From positions 2,304,001 to 2,368,000 of the forward strand of contig CBDCFN010000016.1 of the NCBI GenBank assembly GCA_965216315.1: a stretch of DNA of 64,000 nucleotides, read 5' to 3'. This document shows, piece after piece, positions 44,361 through 53,638 of this stretch. Made by a program: the position numbers and the translations under genes. Every line of letters begins with the position of its first letter. Within the stretch, counting starts at the first letter, position 1. The DNA is from a bacterium (lineage in GTDB: Bacteria; UBA10199; 2-02-FULL-50-16; JAJFLM01). Below the pieces are notes generated by a model. It ran no database searches, was not told where the DNA came from, and saw only the letters and a list, made by a program, of their open reading frames with translations.

Positions 44361-44395
44361 AAAAAAAGGGCGACCCTTAAAGGCCGCCCTTTTTT
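44361..44395. terminator. Bidirectional intrinsic terminator
   Basis: A7-GGGCGACC-CTTAAA-GGCCGCCC-T6 between convergent genes. Confidence 0.85.
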
Positions 44396-44412: not shown

Positions 44413-47400
44413 TTAGATTCGCTTGCGGGTCACCGCCAAGGCGCTCATCGCCGCGAGCATCAGCAGTAACAGTCCTGCCAAAGGTTGCTGCGAACCGTTC
44501 GGGGTCAGGGCACAGCCGCCGCCGTCGCCGACCGCTTCCTCGCCTCCTTCGCCCTCACCTTCGCCTTCACCTTCGCCTTCACCTTCACCTTCACCTTCAC
44601 CTTCGCCTTCACCTTCACCTTCGGCTTCACCGGCGCCGCCGCCGACCAACTCAAAGGCGCCGAGATCACAGTTATCCCCTTCAGGACGCGCCGTCCCGAG
44701 TTGATCTTCAACGGCGCAGGTCGCATTATTACCCGCATCGACAGCCGGGCTTCCCGCCTGCAGCGCAATCGTGAGAGTATCACCACCGTTATCCGCAAGA
44801 CCCGCAGAGTCAAAGAGTGGATCGCCGGTAATCACAAGAGCAGAGTCACCAATTATATCACATTCAAAGGTGTCACCGATAAAGTTGGCTCCTATCGCAA
44901 TCAGAATAGAATCGTCGTTATCCAGGTCAAATTCATGAAAGCAATCATCAACTCCCGTTCCGGGGCTAGCATCATTATTTCCCGCGATAATCGAATTAGC
45001 CAACGAGGCATTATCGACGTCGTCATAGACGTAAATACCCCCACCGTCACCATTGGTCAAACCACCGCTATCAGAGTCAGCGACATTGAACGCGACTGTC
45101 ACGTTATTGAGAGCGAGAGAGTAATCTTGTTGATAGATACCCCCACCGTGTCCAGATGCTTCGTTATTGGCCACGGTTGTATTGTACAGGCCGACATGCC
45201 CATAGCTCCAGATTCCGCCTCCATTACAATCATCAGCATCATCATCAAATCCAGTTGCGCGGTTTCCACTAATTGTGCTGTTCGTAATCGTAAGACCGTA
45301 TTCATTTTCGTTATGGATTCCTGCACCACCTTCACCATCATCCATGTTATCATAACACCCAACCAAGATATTATCCGCAATCGTTGAGTTATAAACCACG
45401 GTCACATACGCACGAATTCCACCTCCATTACCTTGATACACCACATTCCCCCGTATCGTCGAATTGTCCACGATAAGATAGTCATTGTCGTAAATCCCAC
45501 CACCATAATAATTGGAATCCTGGTCGTGATTGGCTATATTCTCTTCAATTAAACTGTTTTCGACGTAAAGCGTGTAATCATTGTAAATCCCACCACCGTC
45601 CTCATCGGCTTTATTTTTACTGACGGTGGAGTTAGTCAGGTAGAAGACGTCGCCATTGTTATAGATACCGCCGCCTCGATTGTCATAGGCGTAATTTTCC
45701 GAAACGAGGCAGTTATCCATGGTGGCCGAATAACCTGAATAAAGACCACCGCCGCTACCATCGGCTCGATTGTTCCGGATTTCACAATCTTCGAAGACAT
45801 GGGCTCCAGCCGACAGATAAATCCCCCCACCATCACTATGAGACCTGTTGTTAAGGACTTGGCTATTAACCAGGCTTAAGCCGCCAGAATCCACATGAAT
45901 CGCCCCACCGGAGCCACCGGCCTCATTGTTCGATAACTCACTATTGCCACTGACAATCAGGGTACCGTCACCAAGGTAAATTGCACCCCCATCGGAAGAA
46001 GCGTCATTGTGGGTGAATTGACTATTCTCAACGGTCAGGCTGCCATCACTGTCGGCATAAATGCCTCCGCCGCTTGCCGCCTCATTACCTGTGACGAGAC
46101 AGTTTATCAGCCGAAGCACGCCTGAATGACTAATGTAGATAGCCCCGCCATTTCCGGCTTGATCCCCATTCTGGAGAGTGAGCCCCGAAATCGTTACTCC
46201 GACGCCGTCATCAGTCGGATCGATTTGAAAGATGCGATCAGCGGTCGCGGGCCCGTTCCCATCAATAATACTGGTCCCATCCCCGGCCCCCTGAATCGTG
46301 ATACTCTTATCGATCAGAATCTGCCCCAACCCTGGATCGATTGCGATTGTCATATTCGCTGGGATATTGATGATGTCACCATCATCCGCCGTGACAATCG
46401 AGGTCCGTAACTGTCCTACAGCACCGGTATCGCCGTCGTTGTCAACATTAATGGTTTCAGCCTGGACCGATCCAACCGTCAAACCCAGCATTAATGCCGC
46501 CATTGAGAACGTCTTCATGACCTTACCCATATTTCGACTCCTCTTCCGAAAAATAGAGAACAACAACATCGACAGGAGCCCCAGCGCCGGCAGGGTGGCT
46601 GCTCCGTTCAAGCCGGCTTCGCCGCTTACGAGACTACAACCGCCACCGGAACCACCGTCCGAATCGCACGCATCACCGATGCCATCCCCATCCGCATCCG
46701 CTTGGTCGGCATTGGCATCATCCGGACAGTTATCCGTACCATCATCAACACCGTCTCCATCAGTATCACCGGCGTCACCACCTCCATCACCATCATCACC
46801 GTCGCCATCGGCGGCATCACCGTCGCCGAATTCGAACGCTCCCAGGTCACAAGCATCCCCTTGGGGTCGCTCGACACCCCGTTGATCCGCTCCCGGGCAG
46901 CTATCCGCACTTGCGGCATCGACCGCAGGACTCCCGGCCTGCAGAGCCAGGGTCGGCGTATCACCACCGTTGTCGCTGACTTCCGTCCCAACGAAAAGGG
47001 GATCGACATGCATCACATTCGCGTCGTCCCCGATAATTTCACAGCCAGTCGGATCCTGCACGATGTTCACACCCAGCGAACTCATATTATCACCTTCTAC
47101 GGTAAAATCGCTGTAGCAATCAGGTGCCTCGGCACCAGGACTCGCATCGATGTTCCCGGCGATGATGGTATTCTGAAAACTGACCTCATCATCATTATAA
47201 ATACCGCCGCCGTTACCGCCGCTGGTGCCGCCGCTATTGGCATCCGCGACGTTAAAAGCTATAGTAACATTCTGAAGCGTTGTGTTTTGACTATAGACGA
47301 AGATCGCTCCGCCATGACCATCCGCCTCGTTACCGACAAAGGTCGAATTGATGACGGTCAAAGGATATTCCGTCCAAATAGCCCCGCCATTGGCATCATC

Positions 47401-50400
47401 GGTCCCGTCAGTACCAAGAGCCCGGTTATTGATAAACGTGCTGTTGCGAACCACGCATGGCTCCGCCGCACAGGCAATCGCCCCACCTCCGTCTACGTCG
47501 TTTCGCGCCACGTTCTCTTCAAACAATGAATTTTCAACGACCAGTTCTTCATTGGCATAGATCCCGCCACCGCTGTTTTCGTTAGCCACGTTATTCCTGA
47601 TCGTAGAATCACTTACGACGAGATAGTATTGGTTATATATTCCGCCACCATCACTCGTTTCAGCCACATTCCCTTCAATGAGGGAATCTGTAATGACGGT
47701 CCCATAATTGTTGTAAATCGCTCCACCTTCATCTTCCGCCACGTTCTCCGTAAATGTGCAGTTACTTATATAAGTCGTATAGTAACTATATAGAGCTCCG
47801 CCGTAACTCTCACTGGAATTCTGGTGAAAGAGCGAATTAGTAATTGTTGCTGCCACCTCGTCGTCATAGATAGAAACTGCGCCACCGTAGTCACTCGCCG
47901 TATTGCCGATGAATTCCGAACCATTGATATTCAATGATCCGTCGTCTTCAAAATAAACAGCCCCACCGTAACCACCAGAAGGGTCAGCCGTATTATTACG
48001 GAATGATGCACCCTGTATATCGAGTGAACCAGCATAAAAATAAATACCGCCCCCGTTATCATCCGCATAATTATTCGTGATCTCACTCCCCGGTCCAACA
48101 ATAACGGTCGCCGTGTCGCTGACATAGATCCCACCGCCATAATCGGCTCGGTTACCATCAATCCGGCTGTTCTCCACCGTCAGTGTCCCATGGTCCTCTA
48201 TATAAACCGCCCCTCCATCGTCGCCAGCATCATCAACGTCGATGCCGGAAATGACACTATTGACGAGACGGACCGAACCGAATTCTCGGATCATGATCCC
48301 GCCGCCGTCCTCATCGACACGTCCGCCGGTTATAGCCATATCTTGGAAGGTAACCGATACGCCCTGGCCGTCGTTGCCTTCGTTGTAGTCGACCTCAAAG
48401 GCGCGATCACCGGTGCTGTCCCCATTGGAGCTGATCGCCGATTTGTCTCGGCCCTGCCCCTTAATGGTGATACTGACATCAATATCGAGGTCCGCGTCGC
48501 CGTCAGAATCCAAGGCCCCCCCTTCAGGGGTGAGCACGATCAATCCCTCGGGAAGCTCGAGGACGTCACCGTTCTGCAGGACACCGCTATTGATGATGAA
48601 ACGAATTTGGCCCGCCTCGGGGGGATCCGTATCCTCGAGACTCGTGACCTGATAGGTTGCGGCCTGGCTGACGCTCGGTAGCGCGACACCCATCAATGTG
48701 AACATCATGACAGCCATTAGTAAATTACGCATCGGTCTTTCTCCCCGTCTGAAGTAGAGCATCCCTAGAATCCCGGCCAGCAAGAGGGCCGCAAAGCCAC
48801 CCGCCTGTGAACCGGTATCAGTGCCTGCAGACAAGGAACAACCCCCACCGGAGCCACTGTCGCTATCACAGACATCTCCGATACCATCGGCATCGGCATC
48901 CGCCTGATCCGCGTTGGCATCATCGACACAGTTATCACAGACATCTCCGACGCCGTCGCCATCCGCATCCGCCTGGTCGGCATTCGCGTCACTGGGACAA
49001 TTGTCGTCGGCGTCATCAACTCCATCGCCGTCACCATCACCCGCGGCGCCGCCACCACCGCCGCCACCACCAGGAGCTGCATCGGGATCCTGGTCGGATT
49101 CGAGGGCACCCAGATCACAGGCCGCCCCGATCGGACGCGCCGTCCCGAGCTGGTCATCTGCTTCACAGGTATTGTTATCCCCGGCGTCAATCGCGGGACT
49201 TCCCGCCGCCAAGGGCAGGGTACCATCGGAGGCCAGTCCGGCCGCATCAAACAAGGGGTCCACGTTCAGGACGCTCAAGATATCTCCCGTCACTTCACAG
49301 CCAACGAGATCTTGAACAATGTTCGGGCCGGCGGAGGTCACCGTATAGTTGTCGAACTCGAAATCATTCCAGCAATCATGCGACGACGGAACCGTACTCG
49401 CATCCGTATTGCCCGCAATGATGCTATTGGAAACACTCACAAAATCTTCGTTGTAGAGACCGCCGCCATCGCCGCCGGAGGCCCCACCTTCATTGGCGTC
49501 CGCCGTATTATTCGCCAACGTGACGTTATTGAGCCTCAAGTCATCGTAGTTGACGATCCCGCCCCCATGACCATCCGCTTCATTGTTGACGATTGTCGAA
49601 TTGACGACCAGCACACTCCCATCGGCATAAAGACCACCGCCCTCAGGGTCGTCACTCGCATCGATTTCGCCCCGCGCGCTATTTCCAGTCAAAGCTGAAT
49701 TACGAATCACGGTGCTGGTGCCATCAGCAAAGATCCCACCCCCGCCATCGATATCGCCCGAAGCCACGTTATCCGTGATCGAGACCTTTTCGAAAACGGC
49801 AAATCCATTCTGATAAACGCCACCGCCATCGCCGCTCGAAGCGACGTTTTGCGCAATGCTTCCGCCGGTGACGTAGAGAAAATCCGAAGAATCATTGAAA
49901 ATACCACCACCGGAACCGCCCGCATCATCCTCATCGGCATCCGCGATATTCTTGGAAACCGTCGTCATCTCGAGCGTGACAGTCCCCTCGTTGTAGATAC
50001 CACCACCGTCACCGTCCGCTCGGTTGCCGGAAATCGTGCTATTATTGATCGTCAACAGATCTTGCGTAAAGATACCCCCACCTGCACCATTATCTAACGA
50101 TCGGTTATTATTGATCTCACAATTATCAATCGACATGGCCTGCAGATTGTGGATGCCGCCACCGCCATTGCCGCTATTGTCCGAGGAGTTCCCGGAGATG
50201 GTGCAGGAAGACAGATTGACACTGGAAGAGTTATTATAAATTCCACCCCCTTGATCGGCCTTATTGCCCGTCACCTCCGTGTTCGTTAGGGTCAGGGCAC
50301 CGGTATCGACATAAATGCCCCCACCGCCACTGCCGGCGTCGTTATCCTCGATCTTTGAATCGGAACCCACAATCACCATGCCTTCATCGGTATAAATCCC

Positions 50401-53331
50401 ACCACCACTACTCCCCGCAATGTTATGCGAGACCGTCGTGTTGCTGACGATCAAGGCACCCGAATCATCGACGTGAATCCCGCCGCCATTGGTCGACGAC
50501 TCATTCGCAAACACGATCGAATCCTTCACTTCGAGCGAACCATTACCGTTGAAATGGATCCCACCGCCGGGAAAACCGGCTATATCGCCGCGCTGAATCG
50601 TCACGCCGCTGATCACGACACTGATATCACTCCCGGCCGGATCGACGTGGAGCGCCCGACCGGAGGTCACGGCCCCATTCGCGTCGATGACGCTAAGACC
50701 CGCGCCCATGCCGCTGATCACCACGTCCTCCAAAACATCGATATCACCATCGACATTGGCATCGTCATTCGTGCTTGGAATCAACAAGGTAAAGGTACCC
50801 GCCGGCAGACTGATGACATCAATTGCAGTCGCCGTCGCTTCACCGGCCAGACACGTGTCTACAGCGGCGTTCGTATTAGCCGCCTCAATGGCCTCCCGAA
50901 GCGAACAGAACCCATTGTTCGTGCTCGGATCATCATCGAGTGTCTCCGTAACGGTAATCGTCTCTGCCCGTACCGGCAGAGGCGCCGCCACCACAGCGAG
51001 CATTGCCGCGACTGCTAAGGAACCAAACATCTTACGCATAAACCGTCTCCTCACCATTAAGGGCAGCGTCAATAGACCCAGTAAGGCCAACGCGGCCGTC
51101 GAACCCATTCCTTGAGAGGACCCAGCACTCAAGGAACAACCGCCCCCGGTATCACCGGCGTCACCGGTATCACAGACATCACCGATGCCATCGCCATCCG
51201 CGTCGGCCTGATCGGCATTCGCATCGCTGGGACAGTTGTCAGCGGCATCAGCCACGCCGTCGCCGTCGCTGTCCGCATCCGCATCACAGGCGTCGCCAGT
51301 CCCGTCTCCGTCAGAGTCGGCCTGATCCGGGTTAGAGACCCCGACGCAGTTATCGCTGGCATCGTCAATCCCGTCACCATCGGCATCCGCATCACAGACA
51401 TCTCCAATCCCATCGCTGTCGGCATCTTCTTGACCGGGGTTGGCATCGCCGGGACAGTTGTCGTCGGCGTCATCGATGCCATCATCGTCGCTGTCATCGT
51501 CTCCAAACTCGAAGGCCCCAAGATCACAATCGGCGTCTTGCGGCCGGGCCACCCCACGCTGATCGGTCGCTTCACAACTCCCTTGATCGCCCTTATTCCA
51601 CGCCGGACTCGCCGCCGTGATGGCCATCGTATCCGTTGGACCACCGTTATCGGCCAAGGCCGCGAGACCCGGATCTTCATGAATGACGCTACCGGCATCA
51701 CCGATGATGCTGCAATCCGTATCATCTTCGACCAGATTGGGACCCACGGCCGTCACATTGGTTCCCCCGTCGTAGCAGTTCGGACCCATGCCCGCCGCCG
51801 TATTATCTGCAATAATGCTATTACTAAGCGTTGTCGAATCCGTATTGGAAAAACCGCCGCCGTCGCCACCCGCTGTATTCCCAGCAATAGTGACATTGTT
51901 GAGCAACGTGTTGGCACCTATAGAAAGCGCTCCACCATCATCAGCCGCCTCATTGCCGTTAAACGTGCTGTTAACGATCACCCCGAAGTCAGAGCTAGTA
52001 TTATAGATTGCACCGCCGTCACGACCGGCCCCCAGCGCCTTATTCAACGAAAAGGTACTATTGCGCACAATGAACTCATCCGCCGAATACAGTCCTCCGC
52101 CATGCCCATCGGCGGTTTCGTTTTGTAAAATGGTTGAACTATCAATCGACGTATCGGCATTCGCGTAAACACCGGCGCCTTCCGAATCAGCCCCTTCCGT
52201 CTTATTGAGCTCGATCGTACTCGCCCGTATCACCAGCTCGCCTTCGGCATAGATTCCACCGCCTTCGCCGTTACCCGCGGCATCGCGCCCCGAGGTATTT
52301 TGCTTAATCGTACTATTATCGACAATCAGGGAGTCATTGGTCCAAACCCCCCCGCCGTCATTGGCAGCAGTGTTATTTTCAATATTCGTGTTGTCCAAAA
52401 GAATCGTCAAATCATCACTATAAATCCCGCCACCATCATCACCACTAGCGGCCTCATCGGTTTTATTCATCGCGACATCAGAGTTGGCGATGACAAGCGT
52501 TCCACTGTTAAAAATCCCACCCCCATCTCCGTTGGTCGAGGTATTGCCCATAATCTCACTATCGGTAATCAGCGTCGCGCCAGTCGCGTAGATACCACCG
52601 CCGTTTTCATCGGCCGTATTGTCTCGAACGATACTGCTATTAAGGATCTCCAGGGTGCCCCCGCTTGAGTAGATTCCTGCTCCGTACCCGCTCGAGGCGA
52701 AAGCCGCGACCGGATCTGCTTCATTGAGATCGATCACGCTGCCTGTCACGACCACATGGCCATCGGAGTTATAAATCCCGCCACCATGGTCGGCTGATGT
52801 ATTGCTTCTAACCGTGCTGCTATCGACGGTCAGATGAGCTTCACTCGCAACATAGATCCCCCCACCGTAATGATTATCACCCGTCGTTACGTTGCCGGTG
52901 ACCATCGAACTGAAAAGGTGAAGCGACCCGGAATGGTCGACATAAATACCGCCACCGTTAGCAGCAACACTCCCGTTCCGAATCGTTAGCCCGGAAATCA
53001 CGACCTGGACACCCTGATCATCATTATCGATCTCGATGACCCGATCCGTCCCGCCACCATCGATGATGCTCGTCGCAAAGTCGGCGCCCCGCAACGTAAT
53101 GCTCTCATCGATTTCGATCGGTCCCAGCAACAAGGTGATTGTCGTACTGGCCGGGATTTCAATCACATCACCGGGGTTGAGGGCCAAATTCTCCGCCAGG
53201 AAGCGAAGCTGACCCGCGCTCCCGTCATCGCCGGTATCCGTGACTGTGAAAGTCGCGGCCTGGACACTGGTACTGAGCATGGTCAAGGTTAAGATTGTGA
53301 ATAGACGTCGGCAGATGCGGGTGATCCCCAT
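44413..53331 (-). CDS. ~2970-aa four-module surface polyprotein (each module: signal peptide, beta-helix/choice-of-anchor-Q-like body, acidic stalk, GGGC-TM-basic sorting signal)
   Basis: GGGIY/GGAI repeats; LADNGG.T.T.AL..GSPA.DAG...DQ.G..RP....CDLGAFE four times; CSLREA motif in module 2; TSP3-like repeats; start ATG 53331 with AGGGGG SD. Confidence 0.88.
44546..44632 (-). repeat. Hexamer repeat encoding (Glu-Gly)n
   Basis: (CCTTC[A/G])n on + strand; [10 protein letters not shown]...GEG. Confidence 0.9.
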
Positions 53332-53638
53332 AAAAAGCCCCCTATGGTTGGTATCATTGAAAAAAAAGTGATTGTGCTGAAGTGCGCGCTTCCCTCGGTT
53401 ACCCATTCATTTCCCCCTAAAGCTAACGAGTACAACGTGCTCCGCGTCAAACGGCTGCGAAGTCTAACTGAAGTTACGTCAAAAAGTCAAAAGACTTTAT
53501 TTCCGTCAGCCGCAGACGGCCAAACTGATCCTTTTTGCCTGTAATTTCAAGTGGAAAAGCAGGAGGAACTAAAAATTCAGTGTTCTGTAGAATACGGAAG
53601 CGGAGCCAATTGGTTGTTATTCCACAGACTCTTAGCCC

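Follow-up and report, generated by a model that had tools for sequence, protein, structure and literature searches.

According to the usual teaching, an exported bacterial protein corresponds to one gene, one signal peptide and one product. In the structural polyprotein of flaviviruses, an anchor helix, a short basic loop and a signal inside the chain, cut by signal peptidase on the far side of the membrane, follow one another repeatedly. Here we analysed a gene on the minus strand of a 64,000-nucleotide stretch of bacterial DNA (positions 2,304,001 to 2,368,000 of contig CBDCFN010000016.1, assembly GCA_965216315.1; the whole stretch is called the window, and its source genome G000), whose single reading frame joins four complete units, each with its own signal peptide and its own Cys-containing sorting tail. 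The hairpins at the junctions of these units and those of the flavivirus polyprotein are alike in their predicted working, with no homology, and the viral system is unlike ours in relying on host endoplasmic reticulum enzymes and in having neither a second, Cys-dependent cut nor a lipid anchor. Among cellular proteins, the cytochrome b/c1 precursor FbcH of Bradyrhizobium japonicum, a membrane polyprotein, reportedly contains an internal signal peptide at which it is believed to be split; unlike the present gene, it joins two unrelated respiratory subunits through one junction and carries no sorting tail. A Haloferax volcanii ArtA substrate, said to come from work of Abdul Halim et al. in 2017, reportedly has a tripartite signal that is not C-terminal. 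It resembles our case in that a sorting enzyme would act on a mid-chain tripartite signal, and differs in being an archaeal substrate of an archaeosortase and of the Tat pathway, with a single signal. Rhombotarget A (9cdu/9cdv) is likewise a beta-helix client of a C-terminal sorting system, in its case rhombosortase, but consists of a single unit with a GlyGly-CTERM tail.

In our literature search on internal sorting tails and bacterial secretory polyproteins, the only relevant mention was a remark on the Myxococcus xanthus adhesin MXAN_5598, in the accessible part of one article (PMC11980579). In that text the protein, which contains an internal MYXO-CTERM, a barrel and an OmpA domain, is seen as two genes possibly fused into one, its N-terminal portion being probably processed and anchored; internal MYXO-CTERM cases are called rare, and LPXTG and an ArtA substrate are cited as precedents of mid-chain tags (PMC11980579). 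MXAN_5598 and the present gene share a Cys-type sorting tail in mid-chain, and the layout of adhesin, tail, barrel and OmpA recurs in two genomes of our collection and one database protein (G087, G029 and P0112). However, MXAN_5598 is made of two heterotypic parts, whereas the present gene has four complete homotypic units, belongs to another phylum and has tails that fail the MYXO-CTERM model. Moreover, each junction of our gene contains a full signal peptide, while the account of MXAN_5598, as far as its accessible part goes, mentions neither a signal peptide after the tail, nor signal peptidase I, nor repeated units. The same source sets out a model of the MYXO-CTERM pathway, in which the protein is exported by Sec, held by the tail helix, lipidated at the Cys, cleaved by MrtX and carried to the surface by type II secretion, and states that the MYXO-CTERM of TraA undergoes Cys-dependent cleavage by MrtX, in E. 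coli too (PMC11980579). The system described here is similar to this myxosortase pathway in its tripartite tail with an invariant Cys, in a CPBP protease with the myxosortase core, in a type II secretin and in the many clients per protease. It differs in that the tails score under the TIGR03901 cut-off, the protease is recognised by the core model only, and its gene has an lgt paralogue and lspA as partners.

New in the present case are the four homotypic units in one frame, the signal peptide after every internal tail and the junctions that lack a Met, together with the occurrence of a fused beside an unfused junction in a single genome, the spread through the phylum and a tail type outside the curated models.

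The four-unit reading frame

An open reading frame (ORF) free of stops runs on the minus strand of the window from 53406 to 44413 (2997 aa in the ORF listing). Since a canonical signal peptide begins at ATG 53331 and a GGGGG run lies 6 nt 5' of this codon, we placed the start there, which gives 2972 codons and a stop (44413-44415); this start is more likely than the in-frame ATG 53406, 25 codons upstream. The four modules delimited by the initial annotation (53331-51040, 51039-48733, 48732-46531 and 46530-44413) were reproduced exactly, together with the junction peptides, signal peptide cleavage sites and Cys codons that it had quoted (Table 1). A polyprotein is a single translation product, and no stop was found across the four units. 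An alternative genetic code was also considered and is unneeded, the frame having no stops that require explanation.

All four units passed the model for the Chlamydia-PMP-type repeats that form right-handed beta-helices, PF02415, with 44.1, 36.4, 78.5 and 63.9 bits for units 1 to 4 (cut-off 20.6; E 1.1e-11, 7.6e-23 and 4.3e-18 for units 1, 3 and 4), and the choice-of-anchor Q model NF041518, with 78.6, 53.4, 77.3 and 73.4 bits (cut-off 25). In unit 2, the CSLREA N-terminal domain was recognised by TIGR04214 (29 bits, cut-off 25) and PF13229 matched with 63.2 bits (E 3e-17). Thrombospondin type 3 (TSP3) repeats precede the tail in units 1 to 3, as indicated by PF02412 in unit 1 (E 7.5e-20) and by partial MtsC and Omp28 matches in all three. 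The whole protein is strongly acidic (D+E 16%, K+R 2.8%). The solved structure closest to a profile of 22 units was that of Rhombotarget A (PDB 9cdu; E 3.3e-12, profile positions 7-240). As a separate observation, unit 4 contains about 15 Gly-Glu dipeptides (~44524-44640, minus strand) at the place where units 1 to 3 have the TSP3 repeats, and this run is probably a mere acidic spacer.

A hydropathy scan with a window of 13 residues revealed strong hydrophobic segments only in pairs at the three junctions and as the C-terminal helix, besides two weaker stretches in unit 2. At junctions 1, 2 and 3, the two helices are separated by a loop with a net charge of +5, +3 and +6, respectively. These data agree with the topology previously proposed for the chain, in which the tail helix enters the membrane, the basic loop stays in the cytoplasm and the signal helix leads out again. 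All four tails are tripartite, with a GGGC(S/A)L motif, a helix of 17-20 residues and a basic cluster. By inspection, the four signal peptides have a basic n-region, small residues at -3 and -1 (VQA/A, VRA/E, SQA/A and VQA/E) and no lipobox Cys at +1. Position -1 is Ala in all eight homotypic junctions that were aligned, position -3 being V, S, A or G. The h-regions of the internal signal peptides are short, Pro or Gly stands before the cleavage site, and the residues past the predicted site can be aligned with the mature N-termini of unit 1 and of single-unit genes. Since nothing would oblige a permanent membrane helix to retain such features, we infer that the internal signal peptides would be cut by signal peptidase I.

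Junctions in related genomes and proteins

The census was based on 93 genomes of the class, which represent the whole phylum in the collection and fall into 24 families. In G001, a genome of the same family and another genus (63-67% identity), junction 2 is present in frame. A contig of 3079 nt, open throughout (1026 aa), contains the end of unit 2, its tail, the loop YFRQRGSQ, a signal peptide beginning with MKKLSML and the start of unit 3, while unit 1 lies on a separate contig, which ends within TSP3 repeats. G010, which belongs to another family, has a two-unit gene of 1491 aa followed by a four-unit frame of 3089 aa. The database form of this frame (P0109, 3060 aa) bears the NCBI name of a single 'choice-of-anchor Q domain-containing protein'; annotation pipelines name such genes as single giant proteins, and surface proteins are thereby misjudged in topology, size and copy number.

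A tree of 35 units was calculated, from which two pieces shorter than 300 aa were omitted and in which P0137 was over-split by the unit pattern. Units 1 and 2 of G000 paired with their G001 counterparts, and pairing was one-to-one between the G010 units and those of P0122, P0134 and P0240; every pair received a value of 100 in the Shimodaira-Hasegawa-like approximate likelihood ratio test (SH-aLRT). The order of the unit types differs between G000 and G010. Given orthology within lineages and a differing order between families, the joined state has therefore been kept and the arrangement reshuffled or re-made.

A profile built from eight junctions and run on all 93 genomes gave 17 full-length matches without stops (in G000, G001, G010, G074, G066 and G020) and six full-length matches with stops. 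Single-unit genes matched just the tail half or just the signal peptide half of this profile, with many half matches, and at the sequence level the junction is an ordinary C-terminus joined to an ordinary N-terminus. The loci inspected after this search contained 22 junctions in 10 genomes. A further profile, restricted to the hairpin and built from 20 junctions, produced 404 matches; among the 150 listed, 16 new ones ran without a stop from the Cys motif to a signal peptide, and 16 of 16 held on inspection. In total, at least 38 stop-free tail-to-signal-peptide junctions were counted, in at least 21 of the 93 genomes and at least 11 of the 24 families. In protein databases, junctions were also present in P0122, P0134, P0137, P0240 and P0112. 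Searches with residues 1440-1700, and with a 381-aa junction fragment against 1.84 billion proteins, were dominated by TSP3 repeat proteins, and among these matches junctions were confirmed only in P0109, P0122, P0134, P0137 and P0112. The junction profile gave three matches among database proteins of 215-2000 aa, and a related-locus search of genome contigs returned five weak actinobacterial beta-helix loci.

Internal tail-plus-signal hairpins, which the initial annotation had proposed to look for in other proteins, are hence found in genomes of other genera and families as well as in databases. With junction 2 kept in G001, two- and four-unit genes in G010 and this number of junctions in the phylum, the fusion is no one-off, and it is almost certain that we are dealing with a real, conserved single gene. 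The cargo joined in this manner is varied. In G087, G029 and P0112 a surface unit is joined to a barrel and an OmpA domain, and in G060 the partner of a tail is a lipoprotein signal peptide containing a lipobox Cys. We also observed a second fused gene in G000, outside the window (G000:C16:1726212-1728473, plus strand; 754 codons from stop to stop), in which a small acidic exported unit with a GSGCAL-helix-RRR tail runs into a lipoprotein signal peptide (LAMG/C), followed by a repeat domain where FG-GAP-like motifs were recognised by eye.

A direct comparison of joined and separate states was offered by G020, where one gene array (L054, G020:C11:17000-31000) includes two fused junctions and one unfused junction. 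Two adjacent junctions of this genome, one fused and one unfused, are about 78% identical over 453 nt. The fused one reads ...RRRMA-PLLGALLGATALLG...GA/ATF and is free of stops, whereas the unfused one reads ...RRRMA-stop-RTPKGGS-MKSSIVGALLGATALLG...GA/TTF. They differ by an in-frame indel of 33 nt, which contains the TAG stop, a ribosome-binding site (AAAGGAGG) and the ATG. Where the two are fused, the tail's basic cluster doubles as the n-region of the following signal peptide. This comparison demonstrates that a junction passes between the fused and the unfused state by a small in-frame indel. The coexistence of both states in paralogues of one genome argues that fused and unfused junctions may yield equivalent products.

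Sorting tails, enzymes and predicted maturation

The tail of the four units is the general Cys-type sorting signal in G000 and, followed by a normal stop, also ends 10 further proteins of this genome (11 long terminal and three internal tails were counted). The initial annotation had stated that tails of this kind normally occur only at the very C-terminus; the 10 proteins conform to this rule, while the internal MYXO-CTERM of MXAN_5598, in the accessible text, was already an exception to it (PMC11980579). In the four-unit gene three of the four tails are internal, unlike the C-terminal placement expected of MYXO-CTERM. Membership of the JDVT-CTERM group was ruled out by score, by the absence of a DP motif from every tail and by the copy number given above. 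In the available part of its description, JDVT-CTERM has a near-invariant Asp-Pro nine residues after the Cys and about one client per genome, beside MrtJ (bioRxiv 10.1101/2023.06.07.544157).

G000 also has a short, helix-less C-terminal tag, GGC(S/A)L(I/L/V/M)R followed by 0-3 residues and a stop, which ends 23 ORFs. Six of the genes carrying it stand in tandem (L069, G000:C16:2260000-2279500), and no NCBIfam C-terminal model matched six proteins bearing the tag. The last polyprotein unit in G010, G074, P0122, P0134, P0137 and P0240 ends in the short tag, and every internal unit seen bears the long tail with the helix. This distribution fits the idea that the helix would be required at internal positions for topology.

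As for the enzymes, G000 encodes a single CPBP (Rce1-like) protein. With 118.1 bits it exceeds the cut-off of 100 set for NF040914 (Mrt_core), the model of the myxosortase core; MrtP of the Bradymonadales comes closest to it, and it remained under the MrtJ cut-off (56.3 bits as compared to 75). A cognate sorting protease of rhomboid or CPBP type had been expected, and it is the CPBP type that was found; all predictions of the initial annotation that were open to a check on sequence data were borne out. A rhombosortase system was considered and rejected, as the two rhomboid-family matches (44.7 and 33.5 bits) fall under the TIGR03902 cut-off of 84. Mrt_core was above its cut-off in 80 of the 93 genomes; the high-quality genomes all had a match at E<=1e-5 (63 of 63). 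The signal peptidase I LepB (153 bits) and the type II secretin GspD (522.5 bits, cut-off 351) were identified as well, and all the enzymes named in the proposal below are present in G000. Overlapping the myxosortase-family gene is a second, divergent lgt, which scored 103.3 bits, short of the 118.9 required by TIGR00544, and is itself preceded by lspA; a canonical lgt (157.4 bits) is situated about 4.5 kb away. In 73 of the 80 Mrt_core genomes, the best match of the lgt paralogue lay 317-615 nt from the Mrt core match; in four of the others it was on another contig, and in three there was none among the matches listed. In the accessible text, the acyltransferase of the MYXO-CTERM pathway is unidentified and Lgt is the leading candidate (PMC11980579). 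The conserved lgt-myxosortase pair points to a candidate for the acyltransferase still sought by the field.

On the analogy of the M. xanthus pathway, we consider it fairly probable that the gene encodes a Sec-threaded polyprotein that is cut by signal peptidase I and the myxosortase into four separately anchored proteins. In this proposal, every cleavage, the lipidation and the surface location would follow the MYXO-CTERM model (PMC11980579, available part). At the Sec translocon, to which signal peptide 1 would bring the chain, unit 1 would be threaded to the periplasm, until the helix of tail 1 halts transfer and leaves the basic loop (+3 to +6 at the three junctions) in the cytoplasm. The following signal peptide would then restart translocation for unit 2, and likewise for units 3 and 4, so that the chain would cross the inner membrane seven further times, through three hairpins and the terminal helix. 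Signal peptidase I would cleave behind each A-x-A. The invariant Cys of each tail would be modified on the periplasmic side, probably by lipidation through an Lgt-type enzyme, which we propose because the second lgt directly adjoins the protease gene, and the single myxosortase-family CPBP protease would cleave distal to the Cys. The expected output is four separately anchored acidic beta-helix proteins in a fixed 1:1:1:1 supply, which the type II secretion system could carry to the cell surface, with three discarded hairpin peptides of about 45-50 residues each as by-product. If the chain is cut as predicted, several lipid-anchored surface proteins would arise from one Sec substrate via two alternating membrane proteases, a principle so far associated with enveloped viruses. 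A gene with four sorting sites and four signal peptidase sites would also be a natural substrate for the study of myxosortase and signal peptidase I.

Several observations weigh against this proposal. The curated tail models, against which the initial annotation had suggested that the internal tails be run, were missed at every cut-off: TIGR03901 (MYXO-CTERM) gave 15.0 and 16.2 bits, no match and 15.3 bits for tails 1 to 4 (cut-off 20), the best score with NF033191 (JDVT-CTERM) was 18.2 bits, for tail 4 (cut-off 27), and tail 3 gave only weak LPXTG and JDVT matches within E 0.1 among the CTERM models. The CPBP protein fails the equivalog models of the known myxosortases (MrtP 175.8 bits, cut-off 250; MrtC 129.3, cut-off 195; MrtX 106.2, cut-off 180). 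The signal peptides were judged by eye, and even for M. xanthus the available text presents Cys lipidation as hypothetical so far (PMC11980579). A Shine-Dalgarno-like run is found 6-8 nt 5' of the internal ATG at three of three junctions in G000 and at the one of G001 (GAGAGGAAG). Among the 8 Arg codons of loops preceding a Met, 5 are the rare AGA or AGG, from which these runs are partly built, as compared to 7 of 30 in the terminal tails and 12.6% in long ORFs, the numbers in this comparison being small. Separate initiation may add to the long chain or, in this family, partly replace it.

The last two features are the basis of one rival explanation, a stop-less operon whose units are made mainly from their own Shine-Dalgarno sequence and ATG (AGGAGA, GGGGAGAAAGA and AGAGGAG before the three internal starts), the read-through chain being a minor by-product. 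We regard this as very unlikely. A ribosome on unit 1 meets no stop, so the long chain is made anyway, and internal starts would themselves yield polyproteins (units 2-4 and 3-4) for which processing is still needed. No promoter-like site was detected by consensus scan within 200 nt upstream of any internal ATG. In addition, Met is absent at 9 of the 19 tabulated junctions, and at several in P0122, P0134 and P0137; separate starts are therefore excluded there, and internal starts are not the conserved feature. Another rival keeps the single chain and dispenses with some or all of the cuts. The product would then be a multi-pass inner-membrane protein, uncleaved or partly cleaved, with the hairpins as permanent anchors of four periplasmic beta-helices, or it would be cut only once per junction and each unit would retain its hairpin. 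The topology is indeed self-consistent without cleavage, the failure of the curated tail models agrees with it, and some uncut MYXO-CTERM protein reaches the surface in M. xanthus, as reported in the accessible text (PMC11980579). Nevertheless, we hold this explanation to be unlikely, considering that a plain helix needs neither the invariant -1 Ala nor the canonical c-regions seen in eight of eight homotypic junctions, that the same tails and signal peptides are used by ordinary single-unit paralogues, and that the 33-nt indel between fused and unfused paralogues is hard to square with different end products. Eight membrane segments would also keep the chain from entering the type II secretin, although its units show homology to Rhombotarget A, which we take to be a type II secretion substrate.

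An artefact or a decaying locus, that is, tandem paralogues wrongly assembled or three stops recently lost in a dying array, was also examined. Paralogous units with TSP3 and PMP repeats trouble assemblers, and the G001 contigs do break inside such repeats. The view that misassembly or chance stop loss is unlikely, already expressed in the initial annotation, was upheld: single per-run contigs from four public runs span all three junctions (46300-51300) with no differing letter, indel or stop at them, the only difference nearby being a synonymous third-position change at 46549. These four runs come from one study with two samples and possibly include the source sample of the assembly, which tells against their independence; for this reason the other genomes are the stronger evidence. 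Three diverged junctions are all in frame, the same design recurs in independent assemblies of other genera and families, and the orthology holds unit by unit (SH-aLRT 100 for G000/G001 and for G010/P0122/P0134/P0240). This explanation is already largely refuted and we consider it extremely improbable.

Extending the processed polyprotein from this gene to the phylum, we tentatively propose, with slightly less than even confidence, a general scheme in which any two exported proteins could be joined by a hairpin of tail helix, basic loop and signal peptide that two different membrane proteases excise, one from either side. Fusion and fission by small in-frame indels would be nearly neutral, unit ratios would be fixed, and a dedicated Lgt paralogue, its gene standing with those of the myxosortase and LspA, would lipidate the tail Cys and be the missing MYXO-CTERM acyltransferase. 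The hairpin could also serve design, with several displayed proteins made from a single reading frame.

Coordinates and neighbouring genes

The positions of the gene, its parts and the associated loci are collected in Table 1. The downstream neighbour is a convergent Na+/H+ exchanger gene, and the upstream neighbours are divergent genes for APS kinase and PAPS reductase. These flanking genes are housekeeping genes, and the polyprotein gene therefore stands alone.

Table 1. Features of the four-unit gene and of related loci (positions in the window unless a genome coordinate is given; unit lengths counted from 53331; TM, transmembrane helix)
Feature	Position	Strand	Details	Basis
Whole gene	44413..53331	-	four units in one frame	ORF and translation
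Unit 1	51040..53331	-	764 aa; PMP-repeat beta-helix, choice-of-anchor Q (51505-51675), TSP3 repeats, tail	
Signal peptide 1	53257..53331	-	ends SVQA/AT	by inspection
Tail 1	51040..51147	-	GGGCSL (Cys 51136-51138), linker, TM ~51049-51102, RRRF	
Unit 2	48733..51039	-	769 aa; CSLREA N-terminal domain, beta-helix, choice-of-anchor Q (49096-49221), TSP3-like repeats, tail	
Internal signal peptide 2	50965..51039	-	PVRA/ET; AGGAGA 6 nt 5' of ATG	
Tail 2	48733..48849	-	GGGCSL (Cys 48838-48840), TM ~48748-48804, RRGERP	
Unit 3	46531..48732	-	734 aa; PMP-repeat beta-helix, choice-of-anchor Q (46828-46983), tail	
Internal signal peptide 3	48661..48732	-	VSQA/AT; GGGGAGAAAGA 5' of ATG	
Tail 3	46531..46647	-	GGGCSL (Cys 46636-46638), TM ~46546-46602, RKRSRN	
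Unit 4	44416..46530	-	705 aa; PMP-repeat beta-helix, choice-of-anchor Q (44647-44805), (Gly-Glu)n linker, terminal tail	
Internal signal peptide 4	46459..46530	-	SVQA/ET; AGAGGAG 7 nt 5' of ATG	
Tail 4	44416..44523	-	sole tail at the true C-terminus; GGGCAL (Cys 44512-44514), TM ~44428-44487, RKRI, stop	
Sigma-70-like promoter match	53461..53490	-	5' of gene; TTGACT, 18 nt, TAGACT	consensus scan only
Terminator-like hairpin and T-run	44366..44378	-	35 nt past the stop	consensus scan only
Myxosortase-family gene locus	L016:1465-3213 = G000:C16:1904925-1906673		outside the window	
lgt listed as second lgt	G000:C16:1910237-1910962		outside the window

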